From the IMG/VR virus record IMGVR_UViG_2571042053_000009: DNA of 7,431 nucleotides; one strand, 5' to 3'. Made by a program: the position numbers and the translations under genes. Below, one piece after another: positions 581 to 7,398 of this stretch. Position 1 is the first letter of the stretch; each line of letters opens with the position of its first letter. Below the pieces are notes generated by a model. That model made no database searches and was not told the origin of the DNA. It saw only the letters and a program-made list of their open reading frames with translations. The DNA is from a virus. Lineage: Duplodnaviria; Heunggongvirae; Uroviricota; Caudoviricetes.

Positions 581-1045
581 CTATTTCTTCATGCGTTTTT
601 GAGCTGCCAGCATATTTTCAAATGCTTCTTTGTAGAGTTCATTCTGACCTTTAAGTCTTTCGATTAGTTTTGCTTTTTCTGATTCGGGAAGGATATCAAA
701 AAGATCTAGTAAATCAGCTTGTTGCTTGTTAACCATCCGCCAACCTTCGCCTTCGAAACTTTCGTCATAAGTTCCTGAGGAACGGACGTAATTCATCAGA
801 TCAGCTAAATCAGGCCTCAACTCTTCAGGCTTAACTCTTAGTAATACAGCGAATTTTAATGCCGCATCAGTATTAAGTGGAGCCTTTCCGTTGAGATAAT
901 GGCTAACCGCAGATTGCGCCTCAAAACCCATTAGCTCGGCAGCAAGCTCCTGAGTCAGTTTGAGCTCTCTTTTTTTTGCATCCCAGATTGCGCGCAGACG
1001 TTGCGTAGCTTCCGGCGATGCGATTTCTTCGCGTTTTCTTCTCAT
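581..1045 (-). CDS. prophage immunity repressor, DicA/RacR-like (XRE-family HTH plus C-terminal dimerisation region), 154 aa
   Basis: 154-aa ORF divergent from the Cro-like gene. HTH segment LTQELAAELMGFEAQSAVSHYLNG. The C-terminal segment DLLDLFDILPESEKAKL resembles the DicA C-terminus as I recall it. Too short for a peptidase S24 domain, so not LexA/CI-like self-cleaving. SD-like GGTGG lies just upstream of ATG 1045..1043. Confidence 0.85.
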   Translation of the reverse strand: MRRKREEIASPEATQRLRAIWDAKKRELKLTQELAAELMGFEAQSAVSHYLNGKAPLNTDAALKFAVLLRVKPEELRPDLADLMNYVRSSGTYDESFEGEGWRMVNKQQADLLDLFDILPESEKAKLIERLKGQNELYKEAFENMLAAQKRMKK

Positions 1046-1425: not shown

Positions 1426-1831
1426 GCACATCGAATCAGTGTTGTTAGCCCTGGCAGCCGAAAAAGGGCAGGCGTGGGTCGCTAACGCAATTACTGAAGA
1501 ATATCTGCGCCAGGGGGGCGGCGAATTGCCCCTGGTACCAGGCAAGGACTGGAACAATCAGCAGAATATCTATCACCGTTGGTTGAAAGGTGAAACGAAA
1601 GCGCAAAGGGAAAAAATTCAGAAACTGATCCCTGCGGTTCTGGCAATTCTTCCGCGCGAGCTGCGTCACCGACTCTGCATCTTCGATACCCTGGAACGCC
1701 GTGCATTACTGGCGGCGCAGGAAGCGTTGAGTACGGCAATTGATGCGCATGATGATGCAGTCCAGGCCGTTTACCGGAAAGCACATTTCAGCGGTGGTGG
1801 GTCGCCCGGCGATTCTGTCGTAGTGCATTGA
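1409..1831 (+). CDS. ydaT: YdaT-like protein (CII-like regulator, toxic when derepressed), 140 aa
   Basis: 140 aa, the same length as Rac YdaT, and the sequence (MKIRHEHIESVLLALAAEKGQAWVANAITEEYLRQGGGELPLVPGKDW...) matches my memory of YdaT closely. AGGAG lies 6 nt upstream of the ATG; the start overlaps the stop of the Cro-like gene. Confidence 0.85.
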   Translation: MKIRHEHIESVLLALAAEKGQAWVANAITEEYLRQGGGELPLVPGKDWNNQQNIYHRWLKGETKAQREKIQKLIPAVLAILPRELRHRLCIFDTLERRALLAAQEALSTAIDAHDDAVQAVYRKAHFSGGGSPGDSVVVH

Positions 1832-1875
1832 TTGAAATTGATCGTGCCGGATTGTTTTGTTCGGTATCAGTTAAA

Positions 1876-1896
1876 TGTAACGCTGCGAGCGTTACA
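1876..1896. repeat. iteron-like palindrome TGTAACGC-N5-GCGTTACA (copy 1), just upstream of the O-like gene RBS
   Basis: Perfect 8-bp inverted arms in the 77-bp intergenic region between the YdaT-like and O-like genes. Confidence 0.6.
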
Positions 1897-1908
1897 AGGT
1901 GAAAACAA

Positions 1909-2697
1909 ATGGCTTCAAACTGGATAAAGCTCGAGGTTATTACGCCGGATAAGCCGGAAATATTCAGGCTTGCTGAGATTCTGAATATTGATCCAGATGC
2001 CGCATTAGGGAAGGTTATTCGCTTCTGGGCATGGGCGGATCAACAAATGATAGACGGTAATGCAGATTGTAACGCTCGCGGCGTTACAAAAAGTGCAATA
2101 GATCGCATCACTTTTATGGCTGGTTTTGCTGATGCGTTAATTCAGGTTGGATGGCTGGTCGAAAATGACGTTGGGCTTTCTCTACCTAACTTTGAACGTC
2201 ATAACGGAAAAAGCTCTAAAAAACGGGCGGTTACAAACGAGCGAGTTACAAAAATACGCGAACTGAAACGAAAAGGTAACGCTGCCAGCGTTACACAAAC
2301 GGATCAAAAAGCGTTACCAGAGGAAGAGGAAGAGGAAGATATAAATACTGATCTCCCCCTAAATCCCCCTCGCCAAAAACGAGCGTCTAAAAAATTCGAG
2401 CCGGAGGCTATTGAGCTGCCCGATTGGTTGCCGGAAACACTCTGGCATGAGTGGGTCCGGTTCAGACAGGCATTGCGAAAACCGATTCGAACGGAGCAGG
2501 GCGCTAACGGGGCGATACGGGAACTGGAAAAATTCCGTCAGCAGGGTTTTACACCTGAGCAGGTGATTCGACACAGCATCGCCAATGAATACCAGGGCCT
2601 GTTCGCGCCGAAAGGTGTTCGGCCTGAGACGTTGCTCCGACAGGTTAACACCGTCTCGTTGCCGGACAGTGCGATCCCGCCAGGCTTCAGGGGGTAA
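1909..2697 (+). CDS. replication initiation protein, lambda O-like / YdaU-like, with acidic linker, 262 aa
   Basis: AAGGTGA RBS before the ATG. Sits immediately upstream of the DnaC-like gene, as in lambdoid replication modules. Contains internal palindromic repeats and an EEEEEED linker encoded by (AGGAAG)x3 at 2321..2338, recalling the lambda O gene, which contains its own ori. Family assignment is from memory. Confidence 0.8.
   Translation: MASNWIKLEVITPDKPEIFRLAEILNIDPDAALGKVIRFWAWADQQMIDGNADCNARGVTKSAIDRITFMAGFADALIQVGWLVENDVGLSLPNFERHNGKSSKKRAVTNERVTKIRELKRKGNAASVTQTDQKALPEEEEEEDINTDLPLNPPRQKRASKKFEPEAIELPDWLPETLWHEWVRFRQALRKPIRTEQGANGAIRELEKFRQQGFTPEQVIRHSIANEYQGLFAPKGVRPETLLRQVNTVSLPDSAIPPGFRG
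2068..2088. repeat. iteron-like palindrome TGTAACGC-N5-GCGTTACA (copy 2), inside the O-like gene
   Basis: Same 8-bp arms as copy 1 with a different 5-bp spacer (TCGCG). Confidence 0.6.
2277..2295. repeat. iteron-like palindrome GTAACGC-N5-GCGTTAC (copy 3) with nearby half-sites
   Basis: 7-bp arms. Additional GTTACA-type half-sites at about 2227..2237, 2243..2254 and 2311..2317, followed by the (AGGAAG)x3 tract. Confidence 0.55.
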
Positions 2698-2703
2698 CGG
2701 ACC

Positions 2704-3450
2704 ATGAAAAATATTGCGACAGGCGGTGTTCTTGAACGTATCCGTAAGCTGGCTCCGCAGCATGTAACCGCGCCGTACCGGACAGTGGACGAGTGGCGAG
2801 AGTGGCAGCTTGCAGAAGGGCGAAAACGTAGCGAGGAGATCAACCGCCTGAATCGTCAGTTGCGGGTGGAAAAAATTCTGAATCGCTCAGGCATCCAGCC
2901 GTTGCATCGTAAATGCTCGTTTGCAAATTACCAGGTGCAGAACGACGGCCAGCGATACGCGTTGAGTCAGGCGAAATCCATCGCTGATGAAATGATGACC
3001 GGGGGTACAAATTTTGCGTTCAGCGGAAAACCTGGTACCGGGAAGAACCACTTAGCGGCAGCTATCGGAAATCGCCTGCTGAAAGATGGCCAGACAGTGA
3101 TTGTGGTTACTGTGGCTGATGTTATGAGTGCCCTGCATGCCAGCTATGACGACGGACAGTCAGGCGAAAAATTTTTGCGGGAACTGTGCGAAGTGGATCT
3201 GCTGGTTCTTGATGAGATTGGCATTCAGCGCGAGACGAAAAACGAGCAGGTGGTACTGCACCAGATTATTGATCGACGGACAGCGTCGATGCGTAGCGTG
3301 GGAATGCTGACAAATCTGAACTATGAGGCCATGAAAACATTGCTCGGTGAGCGGATTATGGATCGCATGACCATGAACGGCGGACGCTGGGTGAATTTTA
3401 ACTGGGAGAGCTGGCGTCCGAATGTCGTCCAGCCAGGAATTGCGAAGTAA
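2704..3450 (+). CDS. DnaC-like helicase loader (IstB/DnaC AAA+ ATPase), YdaV-like, 248 aa
   Basis: Walker [18 protein letters not shown] and Walker B LLVLDEIG. Length 248 aa and position after the O-like gene match YdaV of Rac-type prophages. Confidence 0.9.
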
Positions 3451-3472
3451 TTTTTACCGGGAGAAAAATTTA

Positions 3473-4234
3473 ATGGAGACTGTTTTTGACGCACTGAAAG
3501 CAATGGGAAAAGCCACATCCATAGAACTTGCTGCGCGACTTGATATCAGTCGTGAAGAGGTACTGAACGAGCTGTGGGAACTGAAAAAAGCTGGTTTTGT
3601 TGATAAAACCGCGTACACCTGGCGCGTGGCTGAAAACAACGTTCAGCAGGAACAGTCAGCGCAGGCAGAACTGCCGGAAGAAACCACCACAGCAACAGTA
3701 GCGAAAATCTCAGAGTGCGATTTAACCGCAACGATTGAACAACGCGGACCACAAACGGCTGATGAGCTGGCTACATTGTTTGATACCACATCACGCAAAG
3801 TGGCTTCAACGCTGGCAATGGCAATCAGCAAAGGTCGTCTGATTAGCGTAAATCAGGGCGGTAAATTTCGTTACTGCATACCGGGCGATAATTTACCAGC
3901 AGAGCCGAAAGCAGCATCGGTAGCGGAAACTGATGGTAAAGCCTTTCCTCAGCCTGCATGTGTTGCGTTACCAGTACAGGAAGCTGCAACACAGGAAGAT
4001 ATTAAAACAGAAACGATGGCGGACATTGTGCAGTCGCTGCCATCGTTTACTGCAACGCGATCTGATGATTTGATTTTGCCATCGCTGCATTTGGCAAACC
4101 GCGAACTGCGTCGGGCGAAAAATCATGTCCAGAAGTGGGAGCGTGTCTGCGCCGCGCTGCGGGAGCTGAATAAACACCGGGATATTTTCAGTTCGATTGC
4201 TGATATTCCGGTTCATTCACCGACAACAAAGTGA
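3473..4234 (+). CDS. hypothetical protein with two winged-helix-like segments, 253 aa
   Basis: Start chosen at ATG 3473 (GGGAGA upstream) rather than the in-frame ATG 3422, which has no SD and would overlap the DnaC-like gene. The N-terminus ([29 protein letters not shown]) and residues around 95-140 both look like wHTH folds. Confidence 0.65.
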
Positions 4235-4249
4235 TCTCCGGAGGTGCTT

Positions 4250-4672
4250 ATGACAAGAGCATTTACACCAGAAGAGCGGAAAAAAATTAAGGGGCTGATC
4301 GTGGAATTCGTACGCCTTAACGGACGAGGCACGATTCGGCAGTTATCGGATGAAATTGGTGTCAGTCATGCGTCTGTCGGTCGTTTATGCATGGAGCTGG
4401 CCGCCAGTGGTGATGTTTACAATTCCGGTTACGGAGTATTCCCGTCTGAGCAGGCGCGCAAGGACTGGCAAAACGCCCGCAAAAAACTCTCAAGGGCAAA
4501 GCTGAAGAAACCATCTGTGGTTGATCCGGACCTTATCTGGCTATTACCAGACGGCGAAATACGCCGCTACGACAGGCGCCTAAACATAATCTGTCGCGAG
4601 TGCCGGAAGAGTGAGGCTATGCAGCGTGTACTGGCTTTCTATCAGGGTAATTTTCAGGAGACGGTACTGTGA
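4250..4672 (+). CDS. hypothetical HTH-containing protein, 140 aa
   Basis: ATG 4250 with GGAGG at 4239..4243; the ORF track used the upstream GTG at 4244. HTH-like segment GTIRQLSDEIGVSHASVGRLCMELAASGDV and a basic C-terminal half. Confidence 0.7.
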   Translation: MTRAFTPEERKKIKGLIVEFVRLNGRGTIRQLSDEIGVSHASVGRLCMELAASGDVYNSGYGVFPSEQARKDWQNARKKLSRAKLKKPSVVDPDLIWLLPDGEIRRYDRRLNIICRECRKSEAMQRVLAFYQGNFQETVL

Positions 4673-4729
4673 GTGAAATTAGCTATCAGGCTTCAATTAC
4701 CGCTGGCATTCGCATCAAAGGAGAGGAGC

Positions 4730-5874: not shown

Positions 5875-6777
5875 ATGACCACTATTACCAAAGAACGTAT
5901 TGAATTGTTCATTAAAAATCCGCTTGAAAACGGGCTTACCCGTGGTGAACAAATGGAACTGGCACGGATTGCGCTGGCATCGCTGGAAGCAGATCCAGTT
6001 AAACGAGTTAACTCAGATCAGATGCGCCGAGTCTGCTTAGAAGCTAATCGCCATTTAGATAAATATGACGCGATGGCGAAAGAGGTAAATAAGTTGCTTG
6101 GACGCATCGCCCCGCCAGCGCCGGTAGTGCCGGAAGAAGCAACTCCGGAAAACGTAGAAATGCTCTCTGGCTATGTTTCCACGTACAAATTAACCGATAG
6201 CGAGCGCGATATTGCTGCCGAAATATGGAACGCCTGCCGCACCGCCATGCTTCAGTCCGGAAACTTTCGGGAAAGCAAGAATTCGTCAACCAATAATTTT
6301 CGGGAAATCCCGGAAGCGTCAACCAGCTCTCCGGTAACTCCGGCTCTTCTGCCTGGTGGTTTCACCATTGAGGAGGCGAAGGAATTACATGAAGACCTGG
6401 TACGCAGCCACATAAGCAAGGCCTTAAGTGGCGAAAAGATGAAAAAGAAAGATCGCGATGCTGATTTGCGCTGGATTCATGGCGTTATAGTTCAGGCAGC
6501 GTGGTTTGTAAAAGCATCACTGGAGCAGAATGCACTATCGGGCAACTATCCGGTAACTCCGGATAGTTGGATAAGCTGTAGTGAGCGAATGCCGGATACC
6601 AAAACAGCCGTTCTTGTTGCCAGGGAGTTTGACAGGAAAGGTGACTGGCGAATGAAATGGGCTACTTACATCCCGGGGCATCCTGACGCTAATGATGGGT
6701 GGATAATTCCTGGTGCGTCGTGGAAACCGTCACACTGGATGCCGCTACCAGAACCGCCGCAGGAGGTGCGCCAATGA
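5875..6777 (+). CDS. phage protein with DUF551-like C-terminal domain, 300 aa
   Basis: Strong RBS AAGGAG. The C-terminal segment (MPDTKTAVLVAREFDRKGDWR...WMPLPEPP) resembles the DUF551 domain common in enterobacterial prophage proteins (recalled, not verified). Confidence 0.75.
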   Translation: MTTITKERIELFIKNPLENGLTRGEQMELARIALASLEADPVKRVNSDQMRRVCLEANRHLDKYDAMAKEVNKLLGRIAPPAPVVPEEATPENVEMLSGYVSTYKLTDSERDIAAEIWNACRTAMLQSGNFRESKNSSTNNFREIPEASTSSPVTPALLPGGFTIEEAKELHEDLVRSHISKALSGEKMKKKDRDADLRWIHGVIVQAAWFVKASLEQNALSGNYPVTPDSWISCSERMPDTKTAVLVAREFDRKGDWRMKWATYIPGHPDANDGWIIPGASWKPSHWMPLPEPPQEVRQ

Positions 6778-7027: not shown

Positions 7028-7085
7028 GGTAAAAACGGTTTGCGGTAAAGCGAGAGTTAAGTAGAATTGCTGCGGGTGCTTGAGG

Positions 7086-7121
7086 CTGTCTGCCTCGGGC
7101 ATGCCACCGTAAGGCAGACAG
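7086..7121 (+). promoter_or_regulatory. structured element in the hok leader: 10-bp inverted repeat enclosing the GGCATGCC palindrome
   Basis: CTGTCTGCCT (7086..7095) pairs with AGGCAGACAG (7112..7121). hok-family mRNAs are known to rely on extensive 5' secondary structure; assigning this to a named element is inference. Confidence 0.3.
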
Positions 7122-7242
7122 AGAAAAGCCCCAGTTAACATTACGCGTCCTGCAAGACGCCTAACATTAATCTGAGGCCAATTTCATGCTAGACACATGT
7201 AGGTTAGCCTCTTACGTGCCGAAAGGCAAGGAGAAGCAGGCT

Positions 7243-7398
7243 ATGAAGCAGCAAAAGGCGATGTTAATCGCCCTGATCGTCATCTGTTTAACCGTCATAG
7301 TGACGGCACTGGTAACGAGGAAAGACCTCTGCGAGGTACGAATCCGAACCGGCCAGACGGAGGTCGCTGTCTTCACAGCTTACGAACCTGAGGAGTAA
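7243..7398 (+). CDS. hokD: Hok/Gef-family type I toxin, 51 aa
   Basis: Translation MKQQKAMLIALIVICLTVIVTALVTRKDLCEVRIRTGQTEVAVFTAYEPEE matches my recollection of HokD (RelF): TM helix plus conserved RKxLCE motif. An in-frame upstream ATG at 7186 gives the 70-codon ORF in the track; this may be a mok-like leader frame. Confidence 0.85.
   Translation: MKQQKAMLIALIVICLTVIVTALVTRKDLCEVRIRTGQTEVAVFTAYEPEE

Follow-up and report, generated by a model that had tools for sequence, protein, structure and literature searches.

Three 21-bp palindromes, lying in and just upstream of a phage replication-initiator gene, are probably the cognate sites of the protein that this gene encodes and, together with an adjoining homopurine/AT-rich segment, probably form a lambda-style prophage origin inside the gene. 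They were found in a 7,431-nt stretch of viral DNA (Caudoviricetes; IMG/VR record IMGVR_UViG_2571042053_000009), which is referred to here as the window. To judge from its 99.7% identity to a Rac-like prophage of Escherichia coli strain 99E2750, the window is part of a Rac-like E. coli prophage. The origin would be a differing architectural variant of the lambda plan, with another protein family, another type of helicase loader, a dispersed layout and a homopurine element. An earlier note on this DNA had proposed a lambda-like origin from the repeats; that proposal is now supported by selection at the DNA level, co-inheritance of the sites and the initiator as a module, covariation of motif class with the initiator, the abutting homopurine segment, and the combination of a DnaT-like C-terminal domain with a DnaC-like loader. 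The features that bear on this reading are the following.

1830–2335, plus strand: exchangeable 'origin-specificity module', which starts at the ydaT stop codon, ends with the homopurine tract and contains all palindromes and the 5' 142 initiator codons.
1876–1896: upstream auxiliary palindrome, TGTAACGC-TGCGA-GCGTTACA, 0 mismatches, non-coding.
1909–2697, plus strand: initiator ('O-like') gene, 262 amino acids (aa), with a match to phrog_2509.
2056–2088: auxiliary cluster in the N-domain codons, made up of an extra left arm and a palindrome.
2056–2063: extra left arm, degenerate in the window (GGTAATGC) and GGTAACGC in other haplotypes.
2068–2088: N-domain palindrome, TGTAACGC-TCGCG-GCGTTACA, 0 mismatches.
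2215–2274, plus strand: codons of a basic helix (aa 103–122, SKKRAVTNERVTKIRELKRK), a candidate DNA-specificity determinant.
2229–2318: main site cluster (putative origin core), with two GTTACA half-sites, a palindrome and the last half-site.
2229–2235: half-site GGTTACA.
2244–2250: half-site AGTTACA.
2275–2295: core palindrome, GGTAACGC-TGCCA-GCGTTACA, 1 mismatch (first base G).
2311–2318: last half-site, GCGTTACC.
2319–2339, plus strand: homopurine tract of 21 nt, AGAGGAAGAGGAAGAGGAAGA, which codes for a poly-Glu linker.
2338–2353: short AT-rich segment, GATATAAATACTGATC, a candidate start of unwinding, within the part common to YdaU-type prophages.

The palindromes follow the consensus (T/G)GTAACGC-N5-GCGTTACA. 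A search with the pattern TGTAACGCNNNNNGCGTTACA, allowing up to two mismatches, returned exactly these three matches in the window and none in 200 dinucleotide-preserving shuffles of it. The centres lie at 1886, 2078 and 2285, with spacings of 192 and 207 bp, which confirms the three copies about 200 bp apart described in the earlier note; the GTTACA half-sites that it listed are likewise present. The 7-mer GCGTTAC occurs nine times in the window against 0.70 expected, with seven of the nine occurrences within 1877–2317, and no further palindromes of this kind were found in 19.4 kb of the matching prophage. One copy had been placed upstream of the ribosome-binding site, and the end of the upstream palindrome (1896) indeed overlaps the first base of the Shine-Dalgarno sequence AAGGTG (1896–1901), which precedes the ATG at 1909 by 7 nt. 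The two palindromes inside the gene keep its codon register (codons 54–60, CNARGVT; codons 123–129, GNAASVT). The copy at 2068–2088 codes for a low-confidence loop (aa 50–56) of an AlphaFold2 model, and the core cluster occupies the codons for aa 107–137, between the globular domain and the C-terminal domain. The site region contains no DnaA boxes. No sigma-70-like promoter was detected in 1832–1908, the nearest being at ~1050–1180 in the racR-like/ydaS control region, and there is no plus-strand terminator at the upstream palindrome, which is not followed by a T-run.

The same DNA has other features at the RNA level. On the minus strand (2294–2266), the third palindrome followed by CTTTTCGTTT scores as intrinsic-terminator-like; such a site could halt antisense transcription into the origin or could be due to chance (2 sites against 1.9 expected). 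A second stable RNA hairpin, with GCCGGAUUGUUUUGUUCGGU in a longer stem, lies at 1836–1872 between the ydaT stop codon and the upstream palindrome, and the whole 94-nt leader before the initiator gene folds with z = −2.7.

Selection acts on the DNA of the sites and not on the peptide, because one copy is non-coding, several reading frames are used, the arms hold synonymous positions constant against codon bias and the spacers vary. The comparison set comprised ~150 related loci, and homologues of the N-terminal 134 aa came from 59 phage records, 45 genome loci and hundreds of viral contigs. In 54 related loci, GTAACG/CGTTAC hexamers occur at 11.1 per kb in the −60..+430 interval versus 0.37 per kb in the flanks. 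The motif GGTAACGC-N5-GCGTTA(C/G) is found at codons 49–56 in ~50 loci from Enterobacterales, Pseudomonas, Xanthomonas and Ralstonia; the hosts of the phages that carry it include E. coli, Enterobacter, Klebsiella, Xanthomonas, Pseudomonas and Ralstonia, and these phages have a second cluster of the same motif at +340..+420. At the codon 49–56 site, Gly is always encoded by GGT, and Val by GTT in 29 of 31 high-GC loci, while the shares of GGT and GTT elsewhere in the same genes are 21% and 17% (range 17–24%); synonymous positions neighbouring the site vary freely. Similarly, 24 of 26 high-GC loci (92%) use TTA for the Leu of the last half-site, compared with 3% elsewhere, in genomes of 55–65% GC. 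The motif occurs in two reading frames per orientation across the relatives, being read as GTA ACG C in TL-2011b and as GGT AAC GCT in the window.

The arms and the spacers could also be compared among close relatives. Among 63 distinct near-identical E. coli modules, 6 of 48 arm positions vary versus 9 of 15 spacer positions (Fisher p = 5e-4). For the upstream palindrome, near-identical prophages vary at all five spacer positions versus 1 of 16 arm positions; five of its six haplotypes differ in the spacer alone and one differs also in the innermost left-arm base. The same palindrome is found ~11–37 nt 5' of the ATG (centres −23 to −35) in Mixta, Erwinia, Yersinia, Serratia, Pantoea and Winslowiella loci, where it is kept although the upstream sequence is otherwise unrelated to that of the window, and it is missing where the initiator gene abuts an upstream open reading frame (ORF). 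Within the main cluster, the half-site AGTTACA at 2244–2250 reads AGTAACA in 16 of the 63 haplotypes, which changes the GTTAC core to GTAAC and flips its orientation.

Comparison with a YdaU-type E. coli prophage (locus L002; NZ_CP032811.1) revealed how the sites are inherited. The two sequences are 98.6% identical over 58–1829 and 87% identical over 2336–4687, and the only non-homologous stretch between them, 1830–2335, holds every palindrome. By this comparison, the sites and the 5' part of the initiator gene move together as a single recombination module. Lambdoid phages likewise exchange origin sites and the 5' part of the initiator gene together. The YdaU module contains a repeat of its own, (A/G)ATGTTCAA, with 7–8 copies at positions analogous to those of the window sites. 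Across other phages, the neighbouring genes differ and include those for a methyltransferase, a KilA-type antirepressor, a zinc-ribbon ORF, a DnaB-like helicase and RuvC; therefore, the initiator is the only constant partner of the sites.

The sequence of the sites differs between members of the family and falls into motif classes. GTAACGC is the motif of the window and of most other members, whereas TGTCAC/GTGACA is found in Vibrio phage 1.211.A and its relatives, GTAGAC/GTCTAC in Ralstonia phage Raharianne and its relatives, GTCCGCA/TGCGGAC in epsilon15, phiPSA1, RPZH6 and BUCT711, and GTGGCG/CGCCAC in metagenomic viral contigs. In loci with both an auxiliary and a main cluster, one class motif is used in both. 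Three classes occur among Ralstonia phages, which share one host genus (QkW1, GTAAC; Raharianne, GTAGAC; RPZH6, TCCGC). In most family members examined, the cluster of the class motif lies directly 5' of the homopurine tract, and the last half-site adjoins the tract at the same position, as GCGTTACC-AGAG in one class and GCGGACC-AGAG in another. Vibrio-type loci (L144–L150) were left out of the tract-location table, in which their tract is misplaced, and the Vibrio class rests on other comparisons. The position of the auxiliary cluster is more variable: it lies at codons ~49–56 in most classes, at codons ~18–35 in the epsilon15 class and 5' of the gene in some members, and it is absent in others. 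Two records filed as plasmids also carry the initiator family (L194, NC_015459.1, from Pusillimonas sp. T7-7; L195, CP088505.1). Each is the entire circular genome of a phage, complete with genes for integrase, capsid and tail, and says little about autonomous origin function; the Pusillimonas record is a complete 41-kb circular phage with the initiator and a DnaC-like ATPase as its only replication genes.

The homopurine tract is the conserved feature of the presumed unwinding region, and the AT-rich stretch is weak. The (AGGAAG)x3 repeat reported earlier is present as part of the 2319–2339 run, which is the sole homopurine run of at least 18 nt in the window. Most relatives, among them phages of Salmonella, Pseudomonas, Xanthomonas and Ralstonia, have AGAGAAGAGAAGAGAAGAGAAG, with a period of 5 and not 3, in this position, and the tract is nearly invariant across motif classes. 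All 105 Arg codons of the tract in 49 high-GC loci are AGA and never AGG, although AGG is commoner elsewhere in those genes. In the clade of the window, the tract takes the form (GAGGAA)n, with n = 2–8 among E. coli prophage modules that are otherwise near-identical; this microsatellite is prone to slippage and alters the length of the poly-Glu linker of the initiator. The AT-rich segment is the least stable 20-bp duplex window in 1832–2697 and is among the 1.7% least stable of the whole window.

Further elements surround this segment. It is followed at 2355–2369 by CCCCCTAAATCCCCC (peptide PLNPP), which marks the start of the shared C-terminal module, just past the mosaic junction at 2336. 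Slightly altered versions of this sequence occur in YdaU-type prophages, Mixta/Erwinia loci, Ralstonia phage Raharianne and Klebsiella phages. GATC (Dam) sites at 2302–2305 and 2350–2353 bracket the last half-site, the homopurine tract and the AT-rich segment, and an additional GATC opens the AT-rich segment (GATCTAAA) in many haplotypes and in the YdaU-type module. This placement hints at an involvement of Dam/SeqA.

The PHROG that best matches the initiator, over its full length, is phrog_2509 ('replication initiation protein', 2e-89). Pfam offers no family for the protein even at E ≤ 10, and its RefSeq product name is 'hypothetical protein'. Of 5426 complete E. coli genomes, 689 carry the module, among them that of O157:H7 EDL933, and there too the product is always labelled 'hypothetical protein'. 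The protein consists of a globular, winged-helix-like part (~aa 1–100), a basic helix (~aa 103–122), an acidic disordered linker (~aa 125–150) and a DnaT-like C-terminal domain (aa 170–262). In the AlphaFold2 model, whose confidence is moderate and whose alignment depth is limited since homologue retrieval gave mostly fragments, a helical N-domain with a beta-hairpin is followed by the long basic helix. The compact structural neighbours of the modelled N-domain are winged-helix domains, with weak scores. For the N-terminal part, no family was found in Pfam or NCBIfam and a search of the PDB with an N-domain profile gave nothing meaningful, but homologues are numerous, with 6620 cluster representatives at E ≤ 1e-3 (clusters at 50% identity). 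The C-terminal domain aligns to that of DnaT (2ru8_A, E = 9.3e-5; 9zbt_D, E = 3.1e-4) and shares with it the terminal NTVSxPDSxIPPGFRG motif; the tail also matches the NCBIfam DnaT model (0.0058), and relatives match Pfam PF17948 (DnaT). The match to the 'O-like' phrog_678 covers aa 101–236 only, that is, the linker and the C-terminal part. The gene downstream, ydaV (2704–3450, plus strand), encodes a DnaC-like helicase loader (NCBIfam PRK12377, 1.8e-152; DnaC, 3.9e-91) with Pfam IstB_IS21 and Bac_DnaA matches and the PHROG assignment phrog_50. YdaV is the presumed partner of the C-terminal domain of the initiator.

To locate the part of the initiator that covaries with the sites, members of the GTAAC and TCCGC classes were compared within one subfamily that shares the N-terminus MAGEWIKMRTNLWDDPRV. 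The globular domain (aa 1–97) shows 66% similarity between the classes versus 68% within them, whereas the 25 residues past a conserved HNG motif show 46% between versus 68% within. The signature RAQTAKRVxxH (RAxTxxRV) pairs with GTAAC and RRxx[DE]A[KQ]RK with TCCGC, and both are seen again on other globular backgrounds. The helix reads KKRAVTNERVTK in the window, and its class-D counterpart reads KRRAQDADRKRN. The covariation of palindrome arms with the N-terminal domain that the earlier note had suggested checking thus holds, but it maps to the short basic helix (~aa 100–122) and not to the globular N-domain. From these sequence comparisons we infer that the basic helix is the main specificity determinant.

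A working model can be drawn from these features. Upon derepression, rightward transcription from the racR/ydaS control region would lead to expression of ydaS, ydaT, the initiator gene and ydaV. Initiator dimers would bind the 21-bp palindromes and the half-sites of the main cluster (2229–2318), with a specificity set largely by the basic helix (aa 103–122). The auxiliary palindromes ~200 and ~400 bp upstream (2068–2088 and 1876–1896) would add cooperative binding via looping, and the copy next to the ribosome-binding site may also damp initiator expression and in this way act in autoregulation. The nucleoprotein complex would then destabilise the adjoining homopurine tract and AT-rich segment (2319–2353), and the DnaT-like C-terminal domain would recruit a YdaV(DnaC-like)–DnaB complex, leading to helicase loading.

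Several points weigh against this model. No binding or replication experiment on an origin of this initiator family was found in the searchable literature, and the comparative counts are not phylogenetically independent. When all arms and half-sites are pooled, 15.3% of positions are variable versus 16.5% in the rest of the module, and significance is limited to the contrast between arms and spacers; polymorphism of the two GTTACA half-sites makes them weaker evidence. Palindrome distances change in 12-bp steps (198–264 bp), with no strict helical phasing for a rigid loop, and helical phasing of the sites was rejected for this reason. Many family members lack the N-domain cluster, so that the auxiliary sites are non-essential to the design. 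The AT-rich stretch named in the earlier note held up as a local minimum of stability but is short, with a GC content of ~0.42–0.45 at the 60-bp scale, and the unwinding site is a guess. Finally, the helix codons lie within ~60 nt of the sites, and physical linkage may partly explain the association between helix and class.

The palindromes might instead be operators only, bound by the initiator or another repressor to control expression through a roadblock or translational occlusion, with the origin located elsewhere. The upstream copy fits such a role: it abuts the Shine-Dalgarno sequence, is present in relatives exactly when an intergenic gap precedes the gene and as RNA would form a 9-bp hairpin beside the ribosome-binding site. 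Inverted repeats are also used as operators by the Rep proteins of iteron plasmids (pSC101/pPS10-type replicons). However, there is no promoter-like site near any copy, the most conserved cluster lies ~350 bp inside the gene beside a homopurine tract found across the family, where an operator would hardly be expected, and neither the window nor 19 kb of the prophage showed another repeat cluster or candidate origin. We consider the operator-only explanation unlikely, and operator and origin roles are not mutually exclusive. The location of the first palindrome just 3' of ydaT raises the question of whether a prophage regulator (YdaT/cII-like, YdaS or the RacR-like repressor) or a host factor is the binder, as YdaT-family proteins are DNA-binding regulators acting in cis in Rac-like prophages (PMC11014345). 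Yet L002, with 98.6% identical racR-like, ydaS and ydaT genes, has none of the palindromes, and therefore the products of these genes are not the binder; moreover, the sites are present in phages without these genes (TL-2011b, CP2, VW-6S and QkW1). The occurrence of different motif classes in phages of the same host genus, Ralstonia, argues against a host factor, and no DnaA box is present in the region. Binding by a protein other than the initiator is thus very unlikely.

It is extremely improbable that the repeats are by-products of repeated peptide motifs (xNAxxVT) or of mRNA hairpins and not protein-binding DNA, even though both in-gene palindromes share a codon register and encode similar heptapeptides, and each palindrome forms a stable single-strand hairpin (z-scores of −3.9 to −5.8). 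The peptide explanation, which the earlier note had named as one that would speak against an origin, is excluded by the non-coding copy, the other frames used in relatives and the arm synonymous positions fixed against codon bias while spacers and neighbouring synonymous sites vary. As for hairpins, the arm sequence itself, not mere complementarity, is conserved, and direct arm repeats at 12-bp spacing, lone half-sites and the class-D arrangement are unable to form them. A last alternative concerns the tract, which with its flanking repeats might serve mainly for exchange of initiator modules, or be slippage-prone linker DNA, and have no part in unwinding. The mosaic junction with the YdaU-type prophage does fall at the 3' end of the tract (2335/2336), the same 22-nt tract occurs in otherwise very divergent genes, and its copy number ranges from 2 to 8 units. 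This would account for the tract but not for the abutting class-specific sites, and a sequence-level function beyond homology for recombination is suggested by the invariable choice of AGA and by the conserved distance to the last half-site. This reading is distinctly unlikely, and it is compatible with the origin model, not opposed to it.

Beyond the window, it is possible, if doubtful, that this large initiator family (>6000 clusters at 50% identity, no Pfam model) uses an undescribed origin design with three joint features. The ~20-aa basic helix and DNA sites within ~100 bp could be swapped as one 'specificity cassette' between similar initiators. An almost invariant (AGAGA)n homopurine mirror repeat, with rare codons, could serve as an unwinding element or as an element for contact between the initiator and single-stranded DNA. 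Auxiliary sites in the N-domain codons or the 5' untranslated region (UTR), ~200 bp away, could be looped onto the core and link initiation with the control of initiator production. That a lambdoid initiator gene should contain the origin would not surprise a specialist; less expected are the conserved arrangement in two clusters, the cassette that switches class and the invariance of the homopurine tract. The start point of prophage replication matters for induction, for amplification of neighbouring genes and for annotation. A class motif followed by a homopurine tract would provide a portable origin signature for phages of Pseudomonas, Xanthomonas, Ralstonia, Vibrio and Salmonella, and the series of motif classes paired with a short basic helix would be a natural system for studying change of initiator specificity and could supply orthogonal origin/initiator pairs.

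The remaining genes of the window flank the initiator and ydaV.

581–1045, minus strand: RacR-like helix-turn-helix repressor gene.
1150–1425: ydaS/cro-like gene.
1409–1831: ydaT/cII-like gene.
7074–7398: complete hok/sok-type type I toxin-antitoxin locus at the right end of the window.

Downstream of ydaV lie a DUF1627 gene, a DUF977 gene and several small ORFs. The region 5875–6777 is an unbroken 300-aa ORF with a DUF551-type C-terminus in the window, whereas in the RefSeq record that is 99.7% identical to the window it consists of three partial or pseudogene pieces and a short DUF551 gene. The hok/sok locus comprises an Rfam sok match (RF01794, 7074–7248, 118 bits), a mok-like ORF (7186–7398) and hokD (7243–7398).

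In the lambda plan, the middle of the initiator gene, which codes for the linker, holds binding repeats and, after them, a segment that melts easily; the 19-bp iteron is an imperfect inverted repeat (PMC7466680). The window resembles the ori-O-P region of lambda and its Shiga toxin (Stx)-phage variants in that the putative origin lies mid-gene, in linker codons between a presumed DNA-binding N-terminal part and a presumed loader-recruiting C-terminal part, with ~20-bp imperfect inverted repeat sites, a candidate melting segment after them and a helicase-loader gene directly downstream. It differs in the arrangement of the sites: lambda has four to six contiguous iterons, whereas here the sites are spread across three locations within ~440 bp, with the 5' UTR and the N-domain codons among them. 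The AT-rich region of lambda is replaced by a homopurine tract, and the C-terminal domain is DnaT-like with a DnaC-like partner where lambda has P. No homology of the initiator to lambda O (Pfam Phage_rep_O) was detected, there being no Pfam match at E ≤ 10 and a different PHROG.

The Rac prophage of E. coli K-12, with its YdaU/DUF1376–YdaV pair, has the same gene order (racR, ydaS, ydaT, initiator, ydaV, ydaW). The C-terminal 124 aa of YdaU are 81% identical to the window initiator and ydaV is shared, but the N-terminal 140 aa are unrelated (hhalign probability 0.1%), and DUF1376 matches YdaU of L002 (2.7e-26) and not the window initiator. The YdaU module has the repeat (A/G)ATGTTCAA and no GTAACGC palindromes. 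In L002, this repeat lies at 2417–2744, with one copy at +147, the rest at +350..+460 and one of them inverted, and the linker is purine-rich. In K-12 Rac (L193), which also has the repeat module, the copies are candidates for the iterons of oriJ, the Rac origin, for which NC_000913.3 has no annotation (no rep_origin feature). Rac has been reported to have oriJ as an active origin (PMC3945230), and oriJ belongs to the YdaU-type module.

The Rep proteins of iteron plasmids (pSC101 RepA, pPS10 RepA and F RepE) differ in having no sequence homology to the initiator. In the window, moreover, the sites lie inside coding sequence, the palindromic form is found also in the presumed origin core, and the upstream copy has no promoter and abuts the ribosome-binding site. 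E. coli DnaT, finally, is similar in its C-terminal domain, to which the C-terminal 93 aa of the initiator align, including the PPGFRG end. DnaT has no sequence-specific origin-binding N-terminal part and works with PriA/PriB at stalled forks, whereas in the window the DnaT-like domain is fused to a putative site-specific module and paired with a phage DnaC-like gene.

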